Below are positions 1-12,526 of a stretch of 12,526 nt of DNA, one piece after another. How positions within the stretch are numbered: the stretch's first letter is position 1; every line of letters begins with the position of its first letter. The notes under the pieces were generated by a model. That model saw only the letters and a list, made by a program, of their open reading frames with translations, was not told where the DNA came from and made no database searches. Position numbers and translations under genes: made by a program. The stretch is taken from contig JAOZPT010000063.1 in the NCBI GenBank assembly GCA_029932605.1, positions 1 to 12,526 on the forward strand. The letters run 5' to 3'. Origin of the DNA: Candidatus Zixiibacteriota bacterium. GTDB taxonomy: Bacteria; Zixibacteria; MSB-5A5; UBA10806; 4484-95.

Positions 1-19
1 GTTTTGTTCTAAGGTTGTT

Positions 20-47
20 AAAGCCCGCCTTTTGGCGGGCTTTTTTT
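20..47 (+). terminator. Intrinsic (Rho-independent) terminator of an upstream transcript
   Basis: Perfect stem AAAGCCCGCC (20-29) / GGCGGGCTTT (34-43), TTTT loop, T7 tract at 41-47. Confidence 0.9.
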
Positions 48-48
48 A

Positions 49-76
49 TTGACAGAAATATATGAATAATTATATT
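49..76 (+). promoter_or_regulatory. Putative sigma70-type promoter for the fibre operon
   Basis: TTGACA (49-54), 16-nt spacer, TATATT (71-76), directly after the terminator. A strong RBS GGGAGGAG lies at 161-168, before ATG 171. Confidence 0.6.
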
Positions 77-170
77 AAAAAAGTAAGCCTCTTTTTAAGG
101 GCAGCCTTGACTTGGTAGTATTTTGGAAATTGACTTAAGTATCAGTTTTAATCCTTAAACGGGAGGAGTT

Positions 171-3100
171 ATGGTTTTCAACAACAGGTTTGTAAGCGGC
201 CTGTTTGCGGTCGGTTTTATCGTTATAATTGCTGGCATTGCCAGTGCTCAGACCGCAAAGACTGGCGATTTTAAAACAGGGGGAGACACACCAGAAATCA
301 TTACCTCGGTTCCTCGAACGATGACCTACCAGGGGATACTGAAGGACAATGAGGGGAATCCCTATGATGGGGTACTTACAGTAGAGTTTAAGATTTATAA
401 TGTTGAATCAGGAGGTTCCTCACTTTGGTATGAACCACAGGATATAGAATTTGTCGACGGATACTTCACTGTTGAATTAGGAACAATAAATCCATTGAAT
501 CTATCTTTTGATGAGGATTACTGGCTTGAGATTATAATCGGGAGCGATATTCTCTTTCCACGCCAGAAGCTGAACATGTCGGCGTATTCGGCTCGCACCG
601 ACACCAGCGATTATGCATTTAACGCCGATTTACTCGATGGGATGGACTCAGGTGATTTTGCCTTGGTCAACCATAACCACGATGATGACTACGTTAACGA
701 GAATCAACCAAACTCTATATCCAGTGATATGATTATTGATGAGACGATACAGTTTGTTGACATCGGTCAGAATGGTGCGGATATCGATCAGGTGATGAAA
801 TGGAACGGAAGTGGCTGGATTGCCAGCGATGATGAAGTTGGTGTTGGAGGTGGTGGTTGGGCAGATGATGGCACAGTTGTAAGATTGGAAACAGATTCTG
901 ACTCTGTTGGTATAGGAACAACCAGCCCGTCTGAGAAATTGGAAATTGAGGGTAACATTCTGATAAACGGTAAAGCAACAATTGGCTCAGGCCATATAAA
1001 CACTGGAACCTATGCAACAGTTAGTGGAGGAGGTAACAACACGGCCAGCGGACATTATAGCATAATTGGCGGAGGCAGACTAAATATGTCAAAAGCCCAA
1101 TTCAGTGGGGTATTTTCGGGCTATTCAAATTTAGCCGGTGATGAAGAAGCTGACACTGCCGCTTTTGTCGGTGGAGGTTCAAATAACTCAGCTTTTGCTA
1201 AATACTCTACAGTCAGTGGTGGTGATAGTTGTACTGCCAGTGGGGACTACAGTACAGTCGCTGGTGGACAATATAATACTGCAAGCAATATAGGGGCTGC
1301 TGTAAGCGGTGGATACCTCAACACTGCTAGTGGAGGTCATAGCGTAATCGGCGGAGGCAACTTCAATGTTAATGAAGGCAATTACTCGGTCATTCCCGGA
1401 GGATATGCAGACACTATAACAACATCAGCCCTCATGTCTTACCTTTTCGGTATAGGCAGTAAACTAACAGGCGATTCTACTTTTATGGTCGATATGCCCC
1501 ATATCAGGTTTGGCGATGAAGCAACTGGCTATGAATTCCCCACCTCAGACGGTGAAAGCGATCAAGTGATGGCCACTGATGGTAATGGCCAGTTGAGCTG
1601 GGTTGATGTTTCTTCTGGTGGCGGTGGCTGGACAGATGATGGTACAGTAGTTAGACTTGAAACCATTGATGATTCAGTAGGCATTGGAACAACATCACCA
1701 ACGGAAAAACTTGATGTTTCAGGCAATATCAAGGCCAGCGGCACGATAACAAGCGGAAGTTCTATCACTATCGATGGCGTTAACAACGAGATTACCTCAA
1801 CCACCGGAACAATTGATTTTGATGATGAGAACCTTGTTACATCCGGCAAAGCGACGATTGGTCCCAACCATACTAATACCGGCGGTAATGCGTTTGTAGC
1901 TGGAAGTAACAACACCACAAGTGGTGCTCAGTCGACTGTTGGCGGAGGTTACATGAATACCGCCAGCCAACAAGCGTGTGTAGTAGGTGGTGGCCAGCAA
2001 AATGAGGCAAGCGGCTCTTACTCTACTGTAGCAGGTGGACTGATGAGCACAGCCAGTGGTTATATTAGCACTGTCGGTGGTGGGAAATACTGCAAGGCTC
2101 GCGGCCAGTATTCGGTTGTTAGCGGTGGTGGTGGTATAACCGAAGCTGATTCCAACTCGGCAATAGGAGATTATTCCACTATAGGGGGTGGTACAAAAAA
2201 CATTGCAAGTGCATACTATGCTACTATTGCAGGCGGGTCTGGTAACACAGCGACTTCAAACAGCAGCACGGTCGGTGGTGGTGGTTACAACAATGCTACC
2301 GACTACGCAGCCACGGTAGGTGGCGGGAATTATAACAACGCCAACGGTTATGCCAGCACGGTCGGTGGAGGAAGATCGAACTATGCTAGCGGAAGAAGTA
2401 GTACCGTAGCTGGAGGTGAGCAAAGCACCGCTAATGGGGATTATGCTACTGTGGATGGTGGATTTCGAAATTATGCTATTGGTAATTATGCATTAGCTGG
2501 TGGCGGTTCTCACAACTATGCCCGCGGTCAATATTCAGTTATATGTGGAGGTGGTGGAAGCTCGGCAGCTGATTCCAACTCAGCAAGTGGCACATTATCC
2601 TTTATAGGTGGAGGTTCAAGGAACAGTGCTACCAACACTGCATCCGCTATTTGTGGAGGTGCTAATAATATCGCCAGCGGTTTTGAAAGCATGGTTGGCG
2701 GAGGGTATGGCAACACCGCAAGTGGACTCTACAGCACAGTCGGTGCAGGGTATAACAACACTGCAAGCGGTGCCTACAGCACAGTCAGCGGTGGGTATAG
2801 CAACATTTCAAGCGGAGACTCCAGCACAGTAAGCGGCGGAACCTTTAATACTGCAGGCGGATATGCCTCCTCAGTATGTGGAGGGCACCGCAACTTAAAT
2901 GAAGGCAATAATAGTGTGATTCTCGGAGGTCTTCATGACACCTTGACTTCAAGCGCTAGTGTTTCCATGGCTTTTGGGTTCCGGGTATATGTCAATAACT
3001 CCCGGAAGGTGGTATTCTTCAACGATTACTACTCCGGTTATTTTGGATTAAACCGTGATGATAACGATGGCGGAATCAACTACCCCATCCATGTAGGCAC

Positions 3101-3464
3101 CAGGACCACAAACGGCAACGGCGCTTATCTTTCCTACGGTGGCACCTGGACTAACTCCTCCAGCAAAACATTCAAGGAAAATTTCCAGCCCTTAAACAGA
3201 CAACAGCTCTTGGATAGAATCTCCCAACTGCCAGTCGGCTCTTGGCAATACAAAGACTCTCAGGAACGACATATCGGACCATATGCCGAGGATTTCGTTT
3301 CGGCGTTCGATGTCGGCACAATCAGAGAGGACGGCAAACGCGAGAACATGTATCTTGCGGCAGGCGATGTTGCTGGTGTGGCGTTGGCAGGAGTAAAAGC
3401 CTTATTGGAGAGGATAGAGCAATTAGAAAAGCGTATTGCAGAACTTGAAGCAGAAAAAAGGTAG
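171..3464 (+). CDS. Secreted trimeric tail-fibre-like adhesin with C-terminal peptidase S74 intramolecular chaperone
   Basis: Sec signal peptide (..IASA/Q); N-terminal 'PRTMTYQG..FKIY..LW..GYFTVELG' domain; fibre motif ADLLDGMDSGDF..HNH; two 'VGIGTTSP.EKL' segments; many 14-aa N.ASG.YSTVGGG repeats (YadA-head-like beta-roll); C-terminal 'SSKTFKENF..W.YK..HIGPYAED' followed by a coiled coil, typical of S74 chaperones. Confidence 0.85.
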   Translation: MVFNNRFVSGLFAVGFIVIIAGIASAQTAKTGDFKTGGDTPEIITSVPRTMTYQGILKDNEGNPYDGVLTVEFKIYNVESGGSSLWYEPQDIEFVDGYFTVELGTINPLNLSFDEDYWLEIIIGSDILFPRQKLNMSAYSARTDTSDYAFNADLLDGMDSGDFALVNHNHDDDYVNENQPNSISSDMIIDETIQFVDIGQNGADIDQVMKWNGSGWIASDDEVGVGGGGWADDGTVVRLETDSDSVGIGTTSPSEKLEIEGNILINGKATIGSGHINTGTYATVSGGGNNTASGHYSIIGGGRLNMSKAQFSGVFSGYSNLAGDEEADTAAFVGGGSNNSAFAKYSTVSGGDSCTASGDYSTVAGGQYNTASNIGAAVSGGYLNTASGGHSVIGGGNFNVNEGNYSVIPGGYADTITTSALMSYLFGIGSKLTGDSTFMVDMPHIRFGDEATGYEFPTSDGESDQVMATDGNGQLSWVDVSSGGGGWTDDGTVVRLETIDDSVGIGTTSPTEKLDVSGNIKASGTITSGSSITIDGVNNEITSTTGTIDFDDENLVTSGKATIGPNHTNTGGNAFVAGSNNTTSGAQSTVGGGYMNTASQQACVVGGGQQNEASGSYSTVAGGLMSTASGYISTVGGGKYCKARGQYSVVSGGGGITEADSNSAIGDYSTIGGGTKNIASAYYATIAGGSGNTATSNSSTVGGGGYNNATDYAATVGGGNYNNANGYASTVGGGRSNYASGRSSTVAGGEQSTANGDYATVDGGFRNYAIGNYALAGGGSHNYARGQYSVICGGGGSSAADSNSASGTLSFIGGGSRNSATNTASAICGGANNIASGFESMVGGGYGNTASGLYSTVGAGYNNTASGAYSTVSGGYSNISSGDSSTVSGGTFNTAGGYASSVCGGHRNLNEGNNSVILGGLHDTLTSSASVSMAFGFRVYVNNSRKVVFFNDYYSGYFGLNRDDNDGGINYPIHVGTRTTNGNGAYLSYGGTWTNSSSKTFKENFQPLNRQQLLDRISQLPVGSWQYKDSQERHIGPYAEDFVSAFDVGTIREDGKRENMYLAAGDVAGVALAGVKALLERIEQLEKRIAELEAEKR
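846..959 (+). repeat. Internal duplication copy 1 (GGGGW.DDGTVVRLET..DSVGIGTTSP.EKL...GNI)
   Basis: 31/38 aa identical to copy 2 at 1617-1730 (offset 771 bp). Confidence 0.9.
1617..1730 (+). repeat. Internal duplication copy 2
   Basis: Matches 846-959 at 31/38 aa. Confidence 0.9.
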
Positions 3465-3475
3465 AGGGGGTTACC

Positions 3476-4021
3476 ATGAATATTTACAAAATACTGATAA
3501 TGGTGTTATCGATAACATCTGTAGCAGTAACCCAAAATTACCAGATCGATTGGTATGTCATCGCTTCCGGTGGGGGTCATACGGAGTCAAGCAGTTATCA
3601 GATCGATGGCACAATAGGCCAGCCGATAGTGGGGAGCTCATCGTCGGCTGTTTATCAAATCGAAGCAGGCTTCTGGGTTGGCTTTGGTGAAGCTGGTGCA
3701 TGTGACTATGTCCCCGGTGATGCTAATGGTGACGGCAATGTCATGGGCAACGATGTCACCTACAGCGTGCGCTACTTTAAGGGTCTTGGCGCTCCTCCTC
3801 CTGATAGTTGCCCTTATAATGGTGGTTGGTTATATTCTGCCGGTGATGCCAACGGCAACTGTGCATATACCGGCTCTGATGTGACTTTCCTGGTTGGATT
3901 CTTTAAGGGAATCAACCCGTCTGTCCTCTACTGTCCTGATACGCCACCGGCTGGTGGACCGGTATTTTTGGTTGGAAGCAGAGAAAACAAACAGTTGATT
4001 ACTAAGGAGAATAACAGGTAA
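3476..4021 (+). CDS. Small secreted fibre-partner protein with C-terminal dockerin-like domain
   Basis: Starts 11 bp after the fibre stop, with RBS-like GAGGGGG. Signal peptide; about 50-aa 'YQIDWYVIASGGG..YQIDGTIGQ..YQIEAGFW' domain; then two Ca-loop repeats GDANGDGNVMGNDV and GDANGNCAYTGSDV. Confidence 0.85.
   Translation: MNIYKILIMVLSITSVAVTQNYQIDWYVIASGGGHTESSSYQIDGTIGQPIVGSSSSAVYQIEAGFWVGFGEAGACDYVPGDANGDGNVMGNDVTYSVRYFKGLGAPPPDSCPYNGGWLYSAGDANGNCAYTGSDVTFLVGFFKGINPSVLYCPDTPPAGGPVFLVGSRENKQLITKENNR
3701..3954 (+). repeat. Dockerin-like cassette copy 1
   Basis: Manual codon alignment to 5820-6073 gives 27 mismatches in 254 nt (about 89% identity), no indels, mostly synonymous. Confidence 0.95.
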
Positions 4022-4081
4022 AGACGTGAATAAGTAGTTATGCACTTGAATCTTATAGTCTATTGTAGCCCCCGCATGGGT

Positions 4082-4226
4082 CTGTCTTAAAAGTATAATT
4101 TACCAGTCCTTGCGAAGAACAAAGTGACGAAGCGATCTATGTAACCTATGAGATCGCCTCGACACGCTCGCAAAGACTATTGTTGTAAGTCCACTATAAA
4201 ACTCAATATTTTGACTTTTGAGATAG
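4082..4226. mobile_element. Putative MITE/REP-like nested palindromic element
   Basis: Outer IR CTGTCTTAAAAGT (4082-4094) / ACTTTTGAGATAG (4214-4226), 11/13. Inner IRs AGTCCTTGCGA (4105-4115) / TCGCAAAGACT (4168-4178) and CGAAGCGATCT (4128-4138) / AGATCGCCTCG (4151-4161), 10/11 each. No transposase in the window. Confidence 0.6.
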
Positions 4227-4230
4227 TTTT
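4186..4230 (-). repeat. 45-bp inverted repeat, left copy
   Basis: Its reverse complement matches 6171-6215 at 37/45 nt without gaps. Confidence 0.85.
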
Positions 4231-4242
4231 ATAGGGGGATTT

Positions 4243-4276
4243 TTTGTCTTGACAAATAAATTTTAATATATATTAT
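4243..4276 (+). promoter_or_regulatory. Putative sigma70-type promoter with a palindrome over the -35 box
   Basis: TTGACA (4249-4254), 16 nt, TATTAT (4271-4276). Palindrome TTTGTC-TT-GACAAA at 4243-4256. RBS AAGGAG at 4371-4376. Confidence 0.55.
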
Positions 4277-4382
4277 TATATTAGTATTGGCGAACTTAGC
4301 GCCTTTAAAGAAATGATTATCAACTTTAAATATTATCTTTCAAATCACAATATAATGTTATAGCTATAGAAAGGAGTGCAAC

Positions 4383-6131
4383 ATGGTGAGGTTATTGTCT
4401 ATAAGGCTGATGTTTGTATTGGCGCTGTTAGTATTTATGAGTGCTGGCGGTTGGGCGCAGTGGCCAGAAGACCCGGCGTTAAATATGATTATAAGCGATC
4501 AGGTTGGCGCTCAGGTGATATCAAAAGTCGCCGCAACATCAGATGGTGGTTGCTATGTCAGTTGGTATAGTAATGCCTCAGGTAATTACGACCTTTATCT
4601 GCAGAAGCTAAACGGGGACGGAGAGATTCAGTGGGTTGATAATGGATTGCTCATCAGCAATCATCCACAGGAAACATGGCTCACCGACTATGATATGACT
4701 GTAGATGGTGAGGACCATGCTATAATCGTATTTAATGACATTCGCAATGGTGGCGATTGGGATATTTACGCTTACCGTATCAGTCCTGATGGTGATTTTG
4801 TTTGGGGTGCTGATGGGTTGACGATTTCAGATAACGATGGTTTTGAACCTGACCCAAGAGTTACTATCACTTCAAATGGTAATGTTGTCATCGCCTGGAA
4901 GGAAGATGATATGGTCCATTTACGCAAGCTTACATTAGCTGGTGATGACTTCTGGGACCCTTCAACTATTACCCTTACGTCCACCTATGGTCTTTCGGCT
5001 CCACGGGTTGTTCCTGCGGAAAATGATGGTATAATCTTACAACTTATGGTGGCTAGTGGTCCAAACTGGTGGGACCCTCAGCATATTTATGCCCATAAAT
5101 TCGATTCAGATGGTGTTGAGCAATGGGGAACAAATGGTGTAGCTGTTATGACTACAGGGGGTATTGCAGCTTATATGAAGCCGGATATTGTCACTGATGA
5201 AAATGGCGGCGCTTATTCATTCTGGTATGATACCCGGAACCTTGAGCACCATGTTTACGTCCAACACATTCTTACAGATGGTTCCATGGACTGGACAACA
5301 AACGGAGTCCGGGTCTCTTTAGCCTCTGCTCAATTGCAAATGGACCCTTCGCTGGTTTTCGAGCCAGAAACTGGTGATATCCTTGTTTTCTATAAAGCTA
5401 CAGACCTTAGCCAGACAATCTTTGGTGTTTATGGGCAGAAATTAAACACCAATGGAGAGCGGCAATGGGGTGATGGTGGAGTTGTCCTTGCCCTGATGAA
5501 TAGCCAGGACCATTGGGATATCTATGGTTCAAAACAGGATGATGGCGCAATCGTAACTTATTTTGAATATCTTCCCGGGAGTGCTGTTAACAGCCTTGTC
5601 AAGGCTATCGGTATCAATGATGATGGTGTAATAATCTGGGATCCATCGCCTGTGGAAATGTCCACTGTTATTAGTGAAAAAATGCATATGGCAATAGCTG
5701 TTAACATAAACAATCAGGTTATAGCAACCTGGACTGACTCAAGGATTGATGATAGTGGTGATGTTTATCTGCAGAATATCAATCCTGATGGTACTCTTGG
5801 ACCGTTGTTTTCTCCCGGTTGTGACTATGTCCCCGGTGATGCCAATGGTGACGGCAATGTCATGGGTAACGATGTCACCTACAGCGTGCGCTACTTTAAA
5901 GGTCTTGGTAATCCTCCTCCTGATAGTTGCCCTTATAATGGTGGCTGGTTGTATTCAGCTGGTGATGCCAACGGCAACTGTTCCTATGCTGGCTCTGACG
6001 TGACCTTCCTTGTCGGATTCTTTAAGGGCATAAACCAGACTATTCTCTGGTGTCCTGATACGCCACCAGCTGGACTTGTAGTATTGGGTGAAAACAAGGA
6101 TGGTATGCCGGCTGTTTTGCCTGGAAAATAA
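4383..6131 (+). CDS. Secreted beta-propeller-like repeat protein with C-terminal dockerin-like domain
   Basis: Signal peptide (..GGWA/QW); about 8 repeats of the 'D.Y.Q.l..DG...W..nG..i' type (e.g. DLYLQKLNGDGEIQW, DIYAYRISPDGDFVW, HIYAHKFDSDGVEQW, GVYGQKLNTNGERQW, DVYLQNINPDG); tail nearly identical to that of 3476-4021. Confidence 0.85.
   Translation: MVRLLSIRLMFVLALLVFMSAGGWAQWPEDPALNMIISDQVGAQVISKVAATSDGGCYVSWYSNASGNYDLYLQKLNGDGEIQWVDNGLLISNHPQETWLTDYDMTVDGEDHAIIVFNDIRNGGDWDIYAYRISPDGDFVWGADGLTISDNDGFEPDPRVTITSNGNVVIAWKEDDMVHLRKLTLAGDDFWDPSTITLTSTYGLSAPRVVPAENDGIILQLMVASGPNWWDPQHIYAHKFDSDGVEQWGTNGVAVMTTGGIAAYMKPDIVTDENGGAYSFWYDTRNLEHHVYVQHILTDGSMDWTTNGVRVSLASAQLQMDPSLVFEPETGDILVFYKATDLSQTIFGVYGQKLNTNGERQWGDGGVVLALMNSQDHWDIYGSKQDDGAIVTYFEYLPGSAVNSLVKAIGINDDGVIIWDPSPVEMSTVISEKMHMAIAVNINNQVIATWTDSRIDDSGDVYLQNINPDGTLGPLFSPGCDYVPGDANGDGNVMGNDVTYSVRYFKGLGNPPPDSCPYNGGWLYSAGDANGNCSYAGSDVTFLVGFFKGINQTILWCPDTPPAGLVVLGENKDGMPAVLPGK
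5820..6073 (+). repeat. Dockerin-like cassette copy 2
   Basis: About 89% nt identity to 3701-3954. Confidence 0.95.
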
Positions 6132-6170
6132 TCATATACCCATCTCGTAAACAGATATAAGGCGGTCACA

Positions 6171-6215
6171 AGAACTGACTTAAAAGTCGAAATGTTGAGT
6201 TTTATGGTGGAGTTA
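6171..6215 (+). repeat. 45-bp inverted repeat, right copy
   Basis: 37/45 match to the reverse complement of 4186-4230. It contains CTGACTTAAAAGT (6175-6187), 12/13 identical to 4082-4094. Confidence 0.85.
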
Positions 6216-6309
6216 ACTTTTGCTATTTTTTGTAAAATTTCAACGGAAGATTAACAGAATCAGATATTGGTGAAATTTTATTTTTCTTGAAGGCAGGTGC
6301 AACATATAT

Positions 6310-6329
6310 CCCCTATAATATTATCGGGG
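6310..6329. terminator. Possible hairpin/terminator between convergent genes
   Basis: CCCC-T-ATAA-TA-TTAT-C-GGGG imperfect hairpin 15 bp beyond the stop of the 6345-7448 gene; no good U tract. Confidence 0.3.
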
Positions 6330-6344
6330 TAAAATGATTTTTCT

Positions 6345-7448
6345 TTAAAAAGATCTGTTAGTTGTTAGGACTTTCCGAGCCTCCATTAGGCACTCGCAAA
6401 AATCATTTATTTGTTTTTCTGTATGCACAGCCATGGTTGTCAAGCGCAATCCCCAGCGGTTATATATACTTATTGGAATAACAAAGAAACCGTTCTGGCG
6501 AAGGTAGTCGACAACCTGCAACGTCATTTTCTGGCTGTCAAAATAGACGTTAACAATATGTGTACCTCTATTGTTTAAGGTAAAACCTTTTTCATCTAAG
6601 TAATCGTAAATTTTTTTGATATTTGTTCTCATCTGCTCTACAAGTTCTGGTTTTTCTTTAAGGATTAAGAGTGCTTTTAAAGAGGCAGCGACTGCCATGG
6701 GTGAGATTGAGGTTGAATATAAATATGGCCTTAATGGTTTGGATACTATTTTTTCGACCTCATTCGAATAAGTTAAAAAGCCGCCCTGCGAACCTAAAGC
6801 TTTGGAAAAAGTGCCCATGATGAAATCAGCAACGCCCTCAAGGGAGAACATCTGCTCCAGTCCCCTGCCCGTATCACCTATGCAACCGGTAGCGTGAGCT
6901 TCGTCGAGTATAAGGATGAAATTATATTTTTCTTTAAGCCTGGTAAGCTCATCTAAAGGACAGATATCACCGTCAAGAGTGAAAACAGAGCAGATTGTTA
7001 CTATTTTTTTGGAGTGTTTATCGTCTTTTATAAGTTTTTCGAGGTGGTTGAAATCGAGATGAACGAACGTCTTGACTGGAGTGCCAGAAATTTTTATTCC
7101 ATCAACTGCCGAGGGATGGTTTTTTTCGTCGCTGAAAAATACGGTGTTTGGTCCACCAAGGCAATGATGCAAAGCCACATTTGCGGCATAGCCGGATGGG
7201 AAAATTACAGCTTTCTGACGATTTTTGAATTCGGCGATTTCACCTGCAAGTTTTATATGAAGGGATGTAGTCCCCGAGGTGTTCGGAGCACCACCGGTAC
7301 CACATCCGAATGCCTCAGCTGCTTCGGTCGCCGCCTTAAGAACCTCAGGGTGATGTGAGAGGCCAAGATAATCGTTCGATGAGAAGATAATAAGATCTTT
7401 ACCAGCTATCTTAATAAACTGAGCTTTCCGGGATTCAATCACCTGCAA
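6345..7448 (-). CDS. PLP-dependent alpha-oxoamine synthase family enzyme (BioF/Kbl/SPT-like, aminotransferase class I/II)
   Basis: Motifs FSSNDYLGL, FPSGYAAN, SDEKNHPS..DG, LDEAHATG, GTFSKALGSQGG (PLP Lys) and LRLT...HT. TTG start preceded by GGAGG. Confidence 0.9.
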   Translation of the reverse strand: MQVIESRKAQFIKIAGKDLIIFSSNDYLGLSHHPEVLKAATEAAEAFGCGTGGAPNTSGTTSLHIKLAGEIAEFKNRQKAVIFPSGYAANVALHHCLGGPNTVFFSDEKNHPSAVDGIKISGTPVKTFVHLDFNHLEKLIKDDKHSKKIVTICSVFTLDGDICPLDELTRLKEKYNFILILDEAHATGCIGDTGRGLEQMFSLEGVADFIMGTFSKALGSQGGFLTYSNEVEKIVSKPLRPYLYSTSISPMAVAASLKALLILKEKPELVEQMRTNIKKIYDYLDEKGFTLNNRGTHIVNVYFDSQKMTLQVVDYLRQNGFFVIPISIYNRWGLRLTTMAVHTEKQINDFCECLMEARKVLTTNRSF

Positions 7449-7468
7449 CAGACGGCTCCTCCATGATT

Positions 7469-7497
7469 ATTATAGGTACATTCTTTCATTCGGTCAA
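7469..7497 (-). promoter_or_regulatory. Near-consensus sigma70 promoter for the oxoamine synthase gene
   Basis: On the minus strand: TTGACC (7497-7492), 17-nt spacer, TATAAT (7474-7469). Confidence 0.75.
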
Positions 7498-7522
7498 AAT
7501 AATATTATGTTGAAGATTCGAT

Positions 7523-7547
7523 AAAAGCTGAAAATTGAGGTTTTCAG
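7523..7547 (-). terminator. Possible weak intrinsic terminator
   Basis: Perfect 7-bp stem CTGAAAA (7528-7534) / TTTTCAG (7541-7547) with a 6-nt loop, followed on the minus strand by CTTTTAT. The stem is AT-rich. Confidence 0.35.
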
Positions 7548-7811
7548 ATATCATCATCCGCTGGAGACCTTGGATGGTTCATTAATGGATTCCCACCTGC
7601 TATTGGGAAAATGGAAACGGTGTTAGCAACCTACACAACGTGCTTCAAGTCACAAAACCAGGAACCATTAAAACCGGCCTTAAACATAACTTTAATCTGA
7701 CAGCTGGAAAAGCGCGCTTTTAAGTGGTTGCTCGACTTAGAATAATCAATTGGCATAGATGATAAGGCTTTATGGAGTAAAAACTTGAATATGATATGCT
7801 GAATAGTTAAG

Positions 7812-10475
7812 CTAACTGCTTAGAACCTCTCTTATGGCCATGCCCAGTTTTTGCATGGTGTAAGGCTTTTTGAGATACACTCCAACACCAAGCCTTTCGG
7901 CCTCCTTGACACGGTTGGTTTCCGAAAAACCGCTTGTTATGATAGCTTTCTGGCCTGGTTTGAGTTTGATGATTTCACGGTAAGTATCCAAGCCATCAAA
8001 ACCGTTTTCCATTATCATATCCAGAATAACCACATCAGCTAAATTTTTCTTGATGTATTCTACCGCCTCTTCACCGCTGGCTACTGTATCAACATCATAG
8101 CCAAGGCTTGATAATATACATGCTGCAAGTTCTCTTTGCTCGGGGACATCGTCAACCACCAGGATTTTTTCATTACCCCTGATGTCAGTAACGATACTAT
8201 TCTTACTATCACAGCTGACATCAACAGCTGGAATGTATACTATAAATTTACTACCTTTGTTGGGCTGTGACTGAACGTCGATATATCCGTTATGGTCTTT
8301 TACTACTCCATAGACGATTGCCAACCCCAATCCGCTTCCGCTTCTGCCCATCTCTTTTTTAGTGTAGAATGGTTCAAATATACGTTTTAAATCTTTTTCA
8401 TTTATCCCAACACCTGTGTCGCTTACTGTTAAGATTAGATATTTGCCATCGTTAATATTATCAAAACCGCTGATGAGCTTATCGATTTTTTCACATTTTG
8501 TTTTTATTTTTAGTTTACCGCCATGAGGCATGGCGTCAAGAGCATTGACGATAAGGTTCATTATCATCTTGGATAGATGAGGGGTTGAACCAAGTGTGTT
8601 GGGTAGATTCTTTTCGAGAACGACCTTGATTTCCACATTGGGGAATTTTGATTTAATGTCTAAAAAATCGGGAGATTTCAGGTACGTTTCTATTATTTCG
8701 TTGAGTGCAACGGGCATCATCTCATAACGTCCTCTTCTGGCCAGGGTGAGGAGGTCCTGGACGATGTCAGCTGCCCTTTGAGCCGATTTTTCAATTTGCA
8801 ATATCTGCTTTTTAATCGGGGTATCTGGCGGTAGTTTCATCCTGATTAATTCCGGGTAGGCCACCAGTGGTCCGAGAATGTTATTTAAGTCGTGAGCGAC
8901 ACCACCGGCAAGCACCCCCAGCGATTCCATTCGTTGAGCACGGGCAAGTTTTTCTTTCAGCTGCAGTTTCTCCTCTTCCGTTCTTTTTAACTCCGTTATA
9001 TCAGAAAATACTCCTACTGTCCCTATTACTTTTCCGTTACTGTTTAAATAAGGCGAAGCTGAAAGGTAAATGTAACACAATTGCCCGTCTTTTCTTTTTA
9101 TGGTTAGTTCATAAAGGCTATGTTTTTTGTTTATTCTTTTTTGTGTTTCTTTATAGATTTTATCAATTTCATCTTTGACAACTATTTGCCTGAGATTCAT
9201 TCCTATTAATTCTCTCTGGGAGTAACCAAATACATTGGATGCACCTTTATTTACGAATATTATGTTTTCGTCAAGGTCTGTGATACCAACACCGTCATGT
9301 ATGGTTTCGATGAGAGTGCGGTATCTTTCTTCAGACTGTCGGAGCAGTTTTTCAATATTTTTGCGCTCTGTGATATCTGATACGACCCCGTTTATACGAT
9401 ATATTTTTCCATCCGGAGAGAACTCAAATGTCTTGATATCGTTAACCCATATTATCTTTTTATCCTTGCGTATCACTCGATATTCGGTAATAATTGGACC
9501 GGCATCGGGTCCTTTTCTAATATGGTCAGCGACTTCAGTTAATACTCTATCAATGTCATCTGGATGGGTAATTTCTTTAGTGAATTCACTCGGTTTGTTT
9601 TTGATATCTTCTAGGGAATAACCTGTTTGTTTCTCGAAAGATGGTGAGATAAAATCATAACGATTATTTACAGGATCGAAACGGTATATAACATCTGAGA
9701 TGGCCGAAGCAAATTTCTGAAAACGTTCCTCGCTTTCTCTAATGGCCTCCTCTGATAGCTTACGCTCGGTGTTGTTTATAAAGAGTCCTACAATTATGTC
9801 TTTATCGCTCATTTTCATAGGTTGGGCTGCTATCCAGACAGGGATTTTTCTTCCGTCTTTATGTTGTACTTCTCCCTCGCAATCAACAAGGTGACCTTTT
9901 TTAACATGGGCGGCAAATCTTTCCTTGTATTTTGTTTCTTCGCCTTTGGGATGTAACTCTAATTGATGCATTCCAATAATTTCATTTCGTTTACGGCCTA
10001 TAAGTATTTCAGCTTGCGGGTTGCAATCTATTATCTTCCCTGTAAGCACGTCTGCTATGAATACTGCCCCTCCCGAATTTTCAAATACTGTTTTAAACTT
10101 AACCTCCATGTCTTTTAATTTGTTTTCTACGTTTATGTACTTGGTGATACTATAAAACATGGAGCGATGTAGTAAAAGATAAGATACCGGTAAAATAAGT
10201 ACAATCAGTAATAGTGAATTAATTAAAAACTCAGTTAAAAAAGGTAATGAGGGTAATAAGTGTAAGAGGAACATGATAAATGACTCAGCCATGATAATAG
10301 AGATAGCAACAATGATAAAGAGAGATACAAACGGATGTCTTAGCCTTTTTCCTGGTTTAAAAATTTTATCTTTATCGATAGGTCTGAAATTTTTACCTTG
10401 GCCAGACCCAAAATTTGTTTTGTCTGATTTGGGTGGTTTTAGTGTCTGGATTCTACTCATTAAGCTCAGTCTCAT
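7812..10475 (-). CDS. Hybrid sensor histidine kinase (2 TM - 3 PAS/PAC - HisKA - HATPase_c - REC)
   Basis: Two hydrophobic segments; three PAS domains ending NNTERK, DITERK and DITELK; H-box GGVAHDLNNIL; N-box NLIVNALDAM; G boxes SDTGVGI, FEPFYTKK, GSGLGLA; receiver ILVVDD..LDMIM..KPY. The exact start codon is uncertain. Confidence 0.95.
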   Translation of the reverse strand: MRLSLMSRIQTLKPPKSDKTNFGSGQGKNFRPIDKDKIFKPGKRLRHPFVSLFIIVAISIIMAESFIMFLLHLLPSLPFLTEFLINSLLLIVLILPVSYLLLHRSMFYSITKYINVENKLKDMEVKFKTVFENSGGAVFIADVLTGKIIDCNPQAEILIGRKRNEIIGMHQLELHPKGEETKYKERFAAHVKKGHLVDCEGEVQHKDGRKIPVWIAAQPMKMSDKDIIVGLFINNTERKLSEEAIRESEERFQKFASAISDVIYRFDPVNNRYDFISPSFEKQTGYSLEDIKNKPSEFTKEITHPDDIDRVLTEVADHIRKGPDAGPIITEYRVIRKDKKIIWVNDIKTFEFSPDGKIYRINGVVSDITERKNIEKLLRQSEERYRTLIETIHDGVGITDLDENIIFVNKGASNVFGYSQRELIGMNLRQIVVKDEIDKIYKETQKRINKKHSLYELTIKRKDGQLCYIYLSASPYLNSNGKVIGTVGVFSDITELKRTEEEKLQLKEKLARAQRMESLGVLAGGVAHDLNNILGPLVAYPELIRMKLPPDTPIKKQILQIEKSAQRAADIVQDLLTLARRGRYEMMPVALNEIIETYLKSPDFLDIKSKFPNVEIKVVLEKNLPNTLGSTPHLSKMIMNLIVNALDAMPHGGKLKIKTKCEKIDKLISGFDNINDGKYLILTVSDTGVGINEKDLKRIFEPFYTKKEMGRSGSGLGLAIVYGVVKDHNGYIDVQSQPNKGSKFIVYIPAVDVSCDSKNSIVTDIRGNEKILVVDDVPEQRELAACILSSLGYDVDTVASGEEAVEYIKKNLADVVILDMIMENGFDGLDTYREIIKLKPGQKAIITSGFSETNRVKEAERLGVGVYLKKPYTMQKLGMAIREVLSS

Positions 10476-10480
10476 TTTTC

Positions 10481-10497
10481 TCGTTATAAAATAACGA
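10481..10497. promoter_or_regulatory. Perfect 7-3-7 palindrome at the kinase translation-initiation region
   Basis: TCGTTAT-AAA-ATAACGA, 5 nt upstream of ATG 10475. Confidence 0.35.
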
Positions 10498-10783
10498 TAG
10501 GATTAGTTAAATTTCTTTAAAAAATGATCTTCATAACTTTTTAGTTATTTTAATTATTCGGCGGTTATAGTTATTTTTTTAAATAGAATAAAGGTCTTGG
10601 ATACATGTTGGTCTCAGTAAATATGTAAATTGAAACAGCAAATTTATGATAATGCTTGAGGTAATCACCGTGTGTTAAGTGAGTTACATTCGTAAGGAAG
10701 GGTCTATGAAGGACAATTGGTTAATACATATATTTTTTGCTTTTTTGCTAATGGGTCAAAACTGGGAAGACGAATCCGAGAAT

Positions 10784-11548
10784 CTACTCGGTTTCTTTAA
10801 ATTCTTCATTCTCCAACACCCTGTAATCATAAAATTGCCCCGCAACCCTAAACCTGACATTTATAACCCCTAAAAGTATTTTTACACGTCCCCGCATCTC
10901 CATATCGGTCATCACATAGGGGCCTTCGTCAAGTTTGGTGAAATCGAGATGCATTTTAAGTTCTTTTACCTTTTTGGGGCGCAGCACCTCAAAATCCATT
11001 GTTTTTATTAAAAAGCTTTCTTTGTCGATAAAATATTTACCTTTGATTTGACCCTTGTCGGGTTTTTTCTTGCGCGGAGCAATAGATATCACATAGAACT
11101 GAGCTGTATCATCAACCAGTTCGAAGACATAATCGGGGTTATCAATGGTAAGTTCGACATCGATATCGACACCGAGTTTCTTATTTTCCTTTTCACTTTT
11201 CTTTTTATCCGGTTTCTCTTTTTCGCTTTCGGAGTGTGAATAAACGATTTCTCGAGACAGCTCTTCATCGCCTCGCATCTTTACCCGGGAATAAACCGTA
11301 TCGGCTTTCTCAAATTCGCCCTCTTTGCTAATTTTGCCAGCAATTATCCTCTCGGTATATTCGTAGATAAAGGCTTTATTATTTTCCTGTTGAAGCTCAA
11401 AAGTTTTTTGAGCTCGTTTAAGTATTTCCTCAAGAGATAGATCTTGGGGAATAGCTAGGTTGGTTAGAACTATTAGGAAAAAAGCGATGAGATATATCAT
11501 CAGTATATGGTTAACCGGTAGTTTTTGCCTGAAGGCATGATTTTTCAA
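10784..11548 (-). CDS. Secreted hypothetical protein, probably LolA/outer-membrane lipoprotein-sorting-like beta fold
   Basis: Hydrophobic signal then 'QDLSLEEILKRA', 'YVFELV...YVISIAP', 'KGKYFIDKESF', 'FYDY' pattern. The true start may be the ATG at 11500. Confidence 0.6.
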   Translation of the reverse strand: MKNHAFRQKLPVNHILMIYLIAFFLIVLTNLAIPQDLSLEEILKRAQKTFELQQENNKAFIYEYTERIIAGKISKEGEFEKADTVYSRVKMRGDEELSREIVYSHSESEKEKPDKKKSEKENKKLGVDIDVELTIDNPDYVFELVDDTAQFYVISIAPRKKKPDKGQIKGKYFIDKESFLIKTMDFEVLRPKKVKELKMHLDFTKLDEGPYVMTDMEMRGRVKILLGVINVRFRVAGQFYDYRVLENEEFKETE

Positions 11549-11569
11549 AATATATAATACTTTTCAGTT

Positions 11570-12517
11570 TCAATGAGTTTCTTTCTTCTTATATCCCTCC
11601 GGAATTTCAAATTTGCTGTCATCTACGTTCTTCTTTTCGATACTTAGAATCTCGTTAGATAACGAGAAAACCTTTATCATGTCACTTTCGGATTTCTGAG
11701 ACTGTTTCTTGTTGGATAGACCACTAAGCATTTCTTTCATGCCAGGGGGCATTTCTTCACCATAATCCCCTTCGCCACCCTCTACACCTTTGGTGCTTTC
11801 AACCAGTATAACGGTTTTTATCGGGTAACCTTCAACCCCCTGCATCTTCTCTGTCATCTTGTCAAACTGAGACCCGTATTTATTAAAGATTTTTTGAACA
11901 TGTTGCCGGGGCATAGTAATATCAAAACCGGTGGCTTTGCTGAATTTATTATGGTAATCCTCAAGTTCGTCGAGACCCGGGACATCTTTAGCATACCAGT
12001 ATTCGTAAGTTAATCTCATTTTATCCTCGGGATTTTTCTTATTAATACCGGTTGCTTTACCGATGATGCCTGTGCATTTGAATCCGTTGATTTCAACGTC
12101 TTTATCAGATGTTTTGACATCGAGTGTCCAGTTGTATTCTGACGTTTCATCCTCGTTTTCGCTTTCAGGAGTCTGGCCAGTTCCGGCCATCATCTGTTGT
12201 AAAGACGCTAAACTTGATTCTGAATAGGTTTTATTTTGGGGATCAAGGTCCCAGATGACATCTTTATCGAGTCGAGTAATCTGTATAAACTCACTTGTGG
12301 TCTTCTTGCCCATCATGGCCATCATACCACCAACCATATTGGTTGAGCTACTGCTATAATTTTTATCCCCCTTGATATACTCTACTCCGTTTATTTCGAT
12401 ATTCATTATTGCGGAGCTTTCGATAGATGTTTTTTGCTTGATGATGACATCGGCCTGTGCAAAGACAGCCAGACATATAACCGCAACCACGATAAAAATC
12501 AGGTAATTTCTTTTCAT
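11570..12517 (-). CDS. Secreted DUF4412-like protein
   Basis: RBS GGAGG at the window end; signal peptide (..AQA/D); motifs 'ITRLDK..IW.LD..NKTY.E', 'EINGFKC', 'YWYA.DVP', 'GYPIKT', 'DDSKFEIPEGYK'. Confidence 0.75.
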   Translation of the reverse strand: MKRNYLIFIVVAVICLAVFAQADVIIKQKTSIESSAIMNIEINGVEYIKGDKNYSSSSTNMVGGMMAMMGKKTTSEFIQITRLDKDVIWDLDPQNKTYSESSLASLQQMMAGTGQTPESENEDETSEYNWTLDVKTSDKDVEINGFKCTGIIGKATGINKKNPEDKMRLTYEYWYAKDVPGLDELEDYHNKFSKATGFDITMPRQHVQKIFNKYGSQFDKMTEKMQGVEGYPIKTVILVESTKGVEGGEGDYGEEMPPGMKEMLSGLSNKKQSQKSESDMIKVFSLSNEILSIEKKNVDDSKFEIPEGYKKKETH

Positions 12518-12526
12518 GGCACCTCC

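Follow-up and report, generated by a model that had tools for sequence, protein, structure and literature searches.

A 12,526-nt contig of an uncultured Candidatus Zixiibacteriota bacterium (JAOZPT010000063.1, positions 1 to 12,526; hereafter the window) encodes a secreted phage-like fibre and, directly behind it, a small secreted protein that consists of a 50-aa module and a dockerin-like tail. We propose, with a probability of about 0.55 and on sequence grounds, that the module clamps the predicted fibre trimer at its base, through the N-terminal domains (N-domains), and that the tail serves as a surface tag by which both proteins are anchored on the cell. A grip on the fibre base is likely because the pairing of an untagged fibre with a tagged module recurs in two distant phyla, with different tags. 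In its general design, the fibre is a distant relation of the mosaic adhesive trimer (MAT) proteins of Bdellovibrio; what is new is a module that accompanies a MAT-type N-domain and bears a lineage-specific surface tag. We found no description of this fibre–module pairing in the literature searched, which lacked most subscription papers.

A fibre without a recognised anchor and a partner with a tag

The window is the whole of contig C83 of a 2.5-Mb genome and begins 170 bp upstream of the fibre gene. Both open reading frames (ORFs) were verified (Table 1). A sequence-only reading of this DNA had described an S74 fibre with a signal peptide and no membrane anchor, followed after 11 bp by a small secreted protein, and both descriptions were confirmed, the latter as a signal peptide, the 50-aa module and a dockerin-fold tail. 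The S74 domain (PF13884) scores over its cut-off at aa 997–1046 (37.7 bits), and the catalytic Ser and Lys of the SDxxxK motif, a consensus taken from PMC10769870, are retained at the expected spacing, with Ser in place of Asp. The signal peptide is predicted from the single N-terminal hydrophobic stretch, and the fibre lacks a lipobox because its first Cys is aa 354. A scan against Pfam and NCBIfam found no YadA anchor, type IX secretion system (T9SS) tail or other sorting tag on the fibre.

What kind of domain lies behind the signal peptide? When N-domain homologues were compared with the NCBIfam model of the MAT N-domain (NF053851, Bdello_MAT_N), 41 of 42 matched, with a best E of 1.1e-9, and the window copy itself reached 17.8 bits against a cut-off of 60, spanning positions 12–74 of the 162-position profile. 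By sequence, the N-domain is thus a remote homologue of the MAT N-domain of Bdellovibrio and not a curated member of that family, which supports the kinship that the sequence-only reading had suggested. No fold search identified a clear solved counterpart of the N-domain: the best E in Foldseek was 0.009, VIA returned generic immunoglobulin (Ig)-like domains (best Z 7.0) and the best BFVD match was to uncharacterised phage proteins (E 8e-4). PDB sequence searches with the N-domain and module profiles gave no match, and no solved relative of the S74 region was found. In the ESM Atlas, the N-domain of a second fibre of this genome (on contig C43, see below) matched unnamed clusters at 0.92–0.93 from Verrucomicrobiota, Bacteroidota and Myxococcota. 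Homologues of the N-domain range from ~200 to 2050 aa and have unrelated C-terminal halves, as expected of a mosaic stalk and tip on a constant N-domain.

The module of the partner belongs to a large family: its profile retrieved 8288 clusters (50% identity) at E ≤ 0.001, and no Pfam family corresponds to the alignment of its homologues. Its alignment repeats with a period of 19 residues (z 4.1, equalled in 0 of 1000 column shuffles, among 36 lags tried), and the module was folded without a partner at low confidence (AlphaFold2, predicted local distance difference test (pLDDT) about 55). The best ESM Atlas match, an unnamed cluster at 0.87, serves as a lead only. In 34 of 35 homologues, the module matched positions of about 30–78 of NF058579, the model of PamT from bacteria of the candidate phyla radiation (CPR).

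The tail was modelled as two helices with a pLDDT of about 95 (AlphaFold2). In Foldseek, the best rows for the partner model were clostridial dockerins (probability 0.87–1.0, template modelling score by target ≤0.82), with E values of 0.02–0.8, none of which passes 0.001. The dockerin family PF00404 is present in 48 of 141 aligned partner homologues, and Pfam did not recognise it in the tail of the window partner. The model thus indicates a dockerin fold with two calcium-loop/helix repeats. The same tail occurs on 32 ORFs of the genome, at the C-terminus of 30, and the next gene of the window is among the 32; it is therefore a generic genome-wide tag that is not special to the partner.

Fibre and module genes stand together in two phyla

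The genome holds exactly two N-domains and two modules, which form two adjacent pairs (2/2). The two genes of the second pair, on contig C43 (G000:C43:3596-5685, L093), are likewise 11 nt apart, with a promoter region that resembles that of the window pair. The C43 fibre ends in an S74-like region with Thr at the expected catalytic Ser and so may not cleave itself. Across the phylum Zixibacteria, 162 of 201 sampled genomes gave a match to the module; the N-domain turned up in every one of 61 genomes, in 1–30 copies each.

Gene order was examined in 15 contiguous Zixibacteria genomes, picked for assembly quality, with 110 N-domain and 37 module profile matches; three N-domain rows (a fusion, a partial match and the second piece of a split gene) were dropped, leaving 107. 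We found 23 of the 37 module genes directly behind an N-domain ORF, against 0.10 expected by chance. Among the other 14, two lie behind frameshifted fibres, one behind a contig-cut fibre and one behind an S74-like gene without an N-domain match. Beyond the 23, three further modules proved on inspection to be adjacent to a fibre. A single module gene can also be shared by an array of up to 11 fibres: at one locus (L066, G099:C1:186000-205999), 11 tandem short fibres (460–510 aa) are followed by one module–dockerin gene.

A scan of named genomes yielded one true locus, L078, from an Ardenticatenaceae record, and one chance locus (L079). The Chloroflexota sample, 61 genomes, has L078 as its centre; after one duplicate module row was dropped, 39 remained. 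Here, a fibre immediately precedes 24 of the 39 module genes, and 28 have one directly on one side or the other (chance, 0.12). Module and N-domain each occur in nine of the 61 genomes, both in eight, one only in two and neither in 51. On inspection, the 'N-domain only' genome had a module gene behind its fibre, and the 'module only' case lay behind a contig-cut fibre-like gene. By hhalign, the module alignments of the two phyla are homologous (99.8%). Conservation of the adjacency, which the sequence-only reading had anticipated, is thus borne out in two phyla. Among 54 N-domain ORFs at 44 metagenome loci, the next feature was a module in 11 cases, another fibre in nine and the contig end in ten.

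One fusion of the two parts came to light among 253 N-domain and 348 module entries (G084, L064:1289-2002 (-)): an in-frame truncated N-domain joined to a truncated module and a dockerin. We rejected it as Rosetta-stone evidence because the missing parts, the end of the N-domain and the first module repeat, look like a deletion between two neighbours. In a single case (G118, L139:8225-11513 (+)), a fibre with a degenerate N-domain precedes a small T9SS-tailed protein with a degenerate module; here, the two parts have possibly diverged together.

Module proteins carry the tags that fibres lack

We surveyed tags on the best 150 module matches and on 208 N-domain proteins that the end of a locus does not truncate (the database proteins among them may be partial). 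None of the 208 N-domain proteins has a T9SS tail, and the single one with a dockerin is the deletion fusion. S74, detected with a profile built here, is present in 45 of 208. Eight of 208 match a loose lipobox pattern, two of which look real by eye. Another fibre (L089:799-3138 (+)) has a hydrophobic C-terminal tail behind its S74-like domain, from which cleavage would part it.

The best 150 module proteins comprise 106 with a dockerin, three with a T9SS tail, five with a C-terminal hydrophobic tail and 18 with a short tail that we take to be typical of Chloroflexota and that no family named. NCBIfam matches over cut-off identify T9SS tails on module proteins L113, L107, P0292 and P0330 and IPTL-CTERM on P0257. 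The expectation of the sequence-only reading that the partner's C-terminal tag differs between lineages thus held (dockerin, T9SS, IPTL-CTERM and others). Since fibres are untagged and modules tagged, tagging is complementary.

Does the genome encode a mount for the dockerin? It encodes SprA over cut-off and 68 T9SS-tail matches. Three cohesin matches pass Pfam, all on contig C64, and for two of these matches the protein ends in a T9SS/FlgD-type tail, so that the genome search for cohesins proposed in the sequence-only reading did find cohesin proteins with T9SS-type tails. From their sequences, these are candidate surface sockets for the 32 dockerin proteins. One of the proteins in this cohesin-like cluster (G000:C64:1-4700 and 15300-19450; L091, L092) carries dockerin-like repeats as well. 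A Pfam search of the genome found no large multi-cohesin scaffoldin. Thus, of the 'cellulosome-style' display proposed earlier, the tag fits and the dedicated scaffold does not, the dockerin being a tag spread over the whole genome.

A proposed mechanism and its alternatives

How would the fibre be held? Both proteins carry signal peptides and would reach the periplasm by the Sec route. S74 would then trimerise the fibre and cut itself off, as is established for S74 and has been shown for Bd3182 (PMC10769870, in its available text); with S74 cleaved off, the fibre C-terminus could not be the anchor. One adaptor might engage three N-domains: in the mode that the period and the fold suggest, each protomer would probably receive one 19-residue repeat as an extra beta-strand on its six-strand Ig-like domain. 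Finally, the dockerin would bind a cohesin, and the T9SS-tailed protein bearing that cohesin would be exported and fixed to the surface by the type IX system; the components are encoded, and the binding and the route are our proposal. Our guess is that the fibre crosses the outer membrane riding this T9SS-tailed carrier. In other lineages, the module would be mounted by a T9SS tail, an IPTL-CTERM tail or the short Chloroflexota C-terminal tail, and in CPR bacteria its mount is possibly the pilus-tip protein PamT. One adaptor gene could serve several fibre genes.

More tentatively, MAT-type N-domains throughout bacteria may have the three-repeat module as their general receptor, a single pseudo-threefold chain that donates one strand to each protomer and is mounted on whatever surface system is at hand (dockerin–cohesin, T9SS, exosortase, Chloroflexota tail or CPR Pam pilus tip). 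We regard this extension as a conjecture that is less likely than not, and less probable than the adaptor role in this organism.

Several observations weigh against the adaptor reading. In Zixibacteria, a module directly follows just 23 of the 107 fibre genes, and 43 of 107 have one within 20 kb; eight module genes stand alone among 12 inspected of the 14 that were not paired; and behind 24 of the 54 metagenome N-domain ORFs comes something other than a module, a fibre or the contig end. Thus, the pairing part of the two-gene system that the sequence-only reading had put forward stands, and its strictness does not, given the unpaired fibres, the lone modules and the arrays that share one module. 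Because genomes within a phylum are related, the adjacency counts also overstate independence. Some module proteins carry two to four module copies or embed the module in proteins of 650–1660 aa. Two N-domain proteins look like self-anchored lipoproteins, one of them being L078. As to the module and N-domain themselves, the 19-residue lag alone is significant and the 38-residue lag is not (z 1.4), the NF058579 match reaches 27–28 bits against a cut-off of 240, and every match to the MAT N-domain model is far below the NF053851 cut-off.

The observations beside these points are as follows. In Chloroflexota, secreted proteins of 650–1660 aa with the module deep inside or near the end are encoded beside N-domain genes (L086:3209-8194 (-), L088:5290-9195 (+) and L087:3518-5464 (-)), and the lipoprotein-type fibre (L078:5220-6736 (+)) has a module gene 2 nt downstream.

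A lasting adaptor is the most likely role of the module, and that of an assembly or export helper comes next, which we consider unlikely. Such a helper would bind N-domains as a trimer nucleator, cap or secretion-channel escort, with the tag serving to localise the helper and not to retain the fibre. In its favour, as many as 11 fibre genes share one module gene (L066), fibre genes outnumber module genes about threefold (107 to 37), and the apparently self-anchored fibre of L078 still precedes a module gene; fibres without a T9SS tail would moreover need a carrier across the outer membrane. Yet many fibres have a folding chaperone of their own in S74, the module is fused to several kinds of terminal sorting or anchoring tails, which fits retention, and it also stands at the end of very long stalk-like proteins. 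We find it more doubtful that the two are merely co-regulated surface proteins without contact, the module self-assembling, for example into a beta-rich filament, or binding something else, such as a cell-wall polymer. Orphan module genes and tandem module repeats do exist, and operon co-inheritance alone can yield adjacency and co-occurrence, but the pairing is kept in two distant phyla in which fibre bodies and tags are swapped and the N-domain and module alone stay constant.

Would the complex stay on the cell? The module could bind the fibre while the tail is a calcium-binding or sorting tag that meets no cell-bound cohesin, so that the complex is released to the matrix or to vesicles. The numbers, 32 unrelated secreted proteins with the tail against three Pfam cohesin matches, speak for release, as do the failure of PF00404 to recognise the window tail and the presence of Bdellovibrio MAT fibres in a deposited vesicle as well. 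The predicted dockerin fold of the tail, the cohesin proteins with T9SS tails encoded in the genome and the replacement of the dockerin by a T9SS tail on the same module in relatives argue for attachment, and we judge release improbable.

The last alternative is a tail fibre whose prophage or contractile injection system lies just outside the contig. S74 is a phage-fibre domain, the C-terminus of the C43 paralogue matches PHROG tail-fibre families, the contig starts 170 bp upstream of the fibre gene, and the genome includes an unlinked contig with terminase- and capsid-like ORFs (C18). However, the fibre bears a signal peptide, and no sheath gene was found in the genome, which is 99.96% complete. 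The N-domain and module were not found in 50,697 phage records or in IMG/VR, and plasmid and phage collections gave no match; PHROGs gave none to the N-domain alignment or to the window partner, nor to any of five window proteins scanned, the other two being an aminotransferase and a PAS kinase by Pfam. In four relatives, the flanks hold housekeeping genes and genes for T9SS substrates or secreted proteins (UvrD, DnaA, DnaN, FeoB; 31 of 42 neighbours scanned), and the neighbours of the C43 pair on its two sides, as read from their sequences, are citrate synthase-like and pyrimidine-operon-like genes. A phage origin is thus largely refuted and very improbable, and the sequence-only reading's statement that no such context is present holds within the contig, the genome and the flanks of the four relatives, the DNA upstream of C83 being unseen. 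The C18 contig itself (G000:C18:189-7830, 8 kb) is probably a piece of prophage and is unlinked to the window.

Other features of the window

The features of the locus are collected in Table 1. Elements resembling the promoter at 49..76 also lie upstream of the C43 paralogue and of the gene at 4383-6131 (+), which is probably outside the fibre unit. That gene encodes a 582-aa secreted protein with a weak SBBP-repeat match, probably a beta-propeller; its dockerin tail and that of the partner are nearly identical in DNA, and assemblies break at both copies. The ordinary host genes at 6345-10475 (-) encode a pyridoxal phosphate-dependent acyltransferase of the BioF/Kbl family and a PAS hybrid histidine kinase, and two secreted proteins at 10784-12517 (-), with weak LolA-like and DUF4412 matches, are unrelated to the fibre pair. 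The stretch is covered by contigs from four runs of four studies, which differ by substitutions only, without indels. Its best-covered holders are vent and sediment metagenomes, and no RNA datasets are listed among the holders. The source names of close homologues of the partner are Zixibacteria.

Table 1. Positions of the fibre, its partner and their parts in the window, with neighbouring signals.
Feature	Position	Strand	Basis or remark
Terminator-like hairpin, would end any unit upstream of the contig start	20..43	+	10 pairs, T run; consensus match only
Sigma-70-like promoter before the fibre gene	49..76	+	11/12; consensus match only
Secreted MAT-like fibre, trimeric by prediction, 1097 aa	171..3464	+	
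Predicted Sec signal peptide, fibre aa 1-26	171..248	+	sole hydrophobic stretch, no Cys; cleavage site inferred from sequence
N-domain, aa 45-150, predicted six-strand Ig-like sandwich	303..620	+	model pLDDT 86; NF053851 E 0.0022, below cut-off
Stalk module copy 1, aa 206-270	786..980	+	internal duplication
First Gly-rich adhesin-head repeat block, about aa 280-415	1008..1415	+	self-match, repeat positions
Stalk module copy 2, aa 464-525	1560..1745	+	internal duplication
Main repeat block, aa 584-848, units of 14-15 residues resembling the head of the trimeric adhesin UspA1	1920..2714	+	PDB 3pr7, E 1.3e-28
S74 intramolecular chaperone/protease and C-terminal coiled coil	3159..3461	+	PF13884, motif at aa 997
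11-nt spacer with purine-rich ribosome-binding site	3465..3475	+	sequence; spacer of the C43 pair likewise 11 nt
Small secreted partner, candidate adaptor, 181 aa	3476..4021	+	
Conserved 50-aa module, 19-residue period, like mature N-terminus of CPR PamT	3533..3691	+	
Cys-containing dockerin-fold tail, also on 31 other ORFs of the genome	3701..3952	+	
Near-identical dockerin-like tail of the next gene	5820..6071	+	gene 4383-6131, promoter-like site at 4249

Relation to known adhesins, pili and cellulosomes

The fibre resembles the MAT proteins of Bdellovibrio bacteriovorus, specifically their S74 subfamily, in having a signal peptide with a beta-rich N-domain (a weak NF053851 match) directly after it, a mosaic stalk and head and a C-terminal S74, and, like them, it belongs to a chromosomal multi-copy family. 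Unlike in MAT, the host is uncultured and of a lineage not annotated as predatory, the N-domain has about 106 aa (about 130 aa in MAT), and the fibre combines UspA1-like repeats with a tagged partner gene, a partner that the available text of PMC10769870 does not describe. In that same text, the MAT N-domain is presumed to bind a surface element, which is left unidentified (Caulton et al. 2024). The fibre also shares head repeats (PDB 3pr7) and a predicted trimeric form with trimeric autotransporter adhesins such as Moraxella UspA1 and YadA. Unlike these, it has no C-terminal beta-barrel anchor and ends in S74 and a coiled coil; because the C-terminus is the S74 chaperone, its polarity would be reversed, with the base at the N-terminus.

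For the partner, the closest known protein is PamT, which a preprint (Troman et al. 2026, PMC13278184) predicts to form the tip of the CPR Pam pilus; the module is similar to it in the N-terminal part of NF058579. Only the N-terminal 50 residues match: no full-length NF058579 match passes the cut-off, the likeness is confined to the N-terminal 78 positions, and the module is thus not assigned to PamT. According to the preprint's available text, the rest of PamT is an Ig-like pilin, whereas here a dockerin follows. A tail-fibre-like gene is reported there to co-localise consistently with the pam operon, and the available text of PMC13278184 states no link between PamT and the fibre.

The C-terminal dockerin on many secreted proteins recalls the clostridial cellulosome and Ca. 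Stygibacter (Cloacimonadota), for which a T9SS-tailed scaffoldin and a dockerin–cohesin–T9SS display have been inferred (PMC8542988, as far as its available text goes); cohesins with a T9SS-type C-terminal domain are shared with Stygibacter. Unlike in both, the cargo here would be a fibre held indirectly through a candidate adaptor and not an enzyme, and the dockerin has conserved cysteines.

The pair thus offers a small and concrete candidate for what holds MAT-type fibres, a 106-aa domain and a 50-aa peptide, and the weak but consistent PamT match ties the module to the host-contact pili of CPR bacteria. If the binding is true, the two would form a new plug-and-socket for interchangeable fibre adhesins, with a possible use in surface display. 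If the module is indeed a general receptor, the missing anchor of Bdellovibrio-type prey-binding fibres would be identified, and CPR pili would bear at their tip a phage-like fibre for host recognition, with PamT as its holder.

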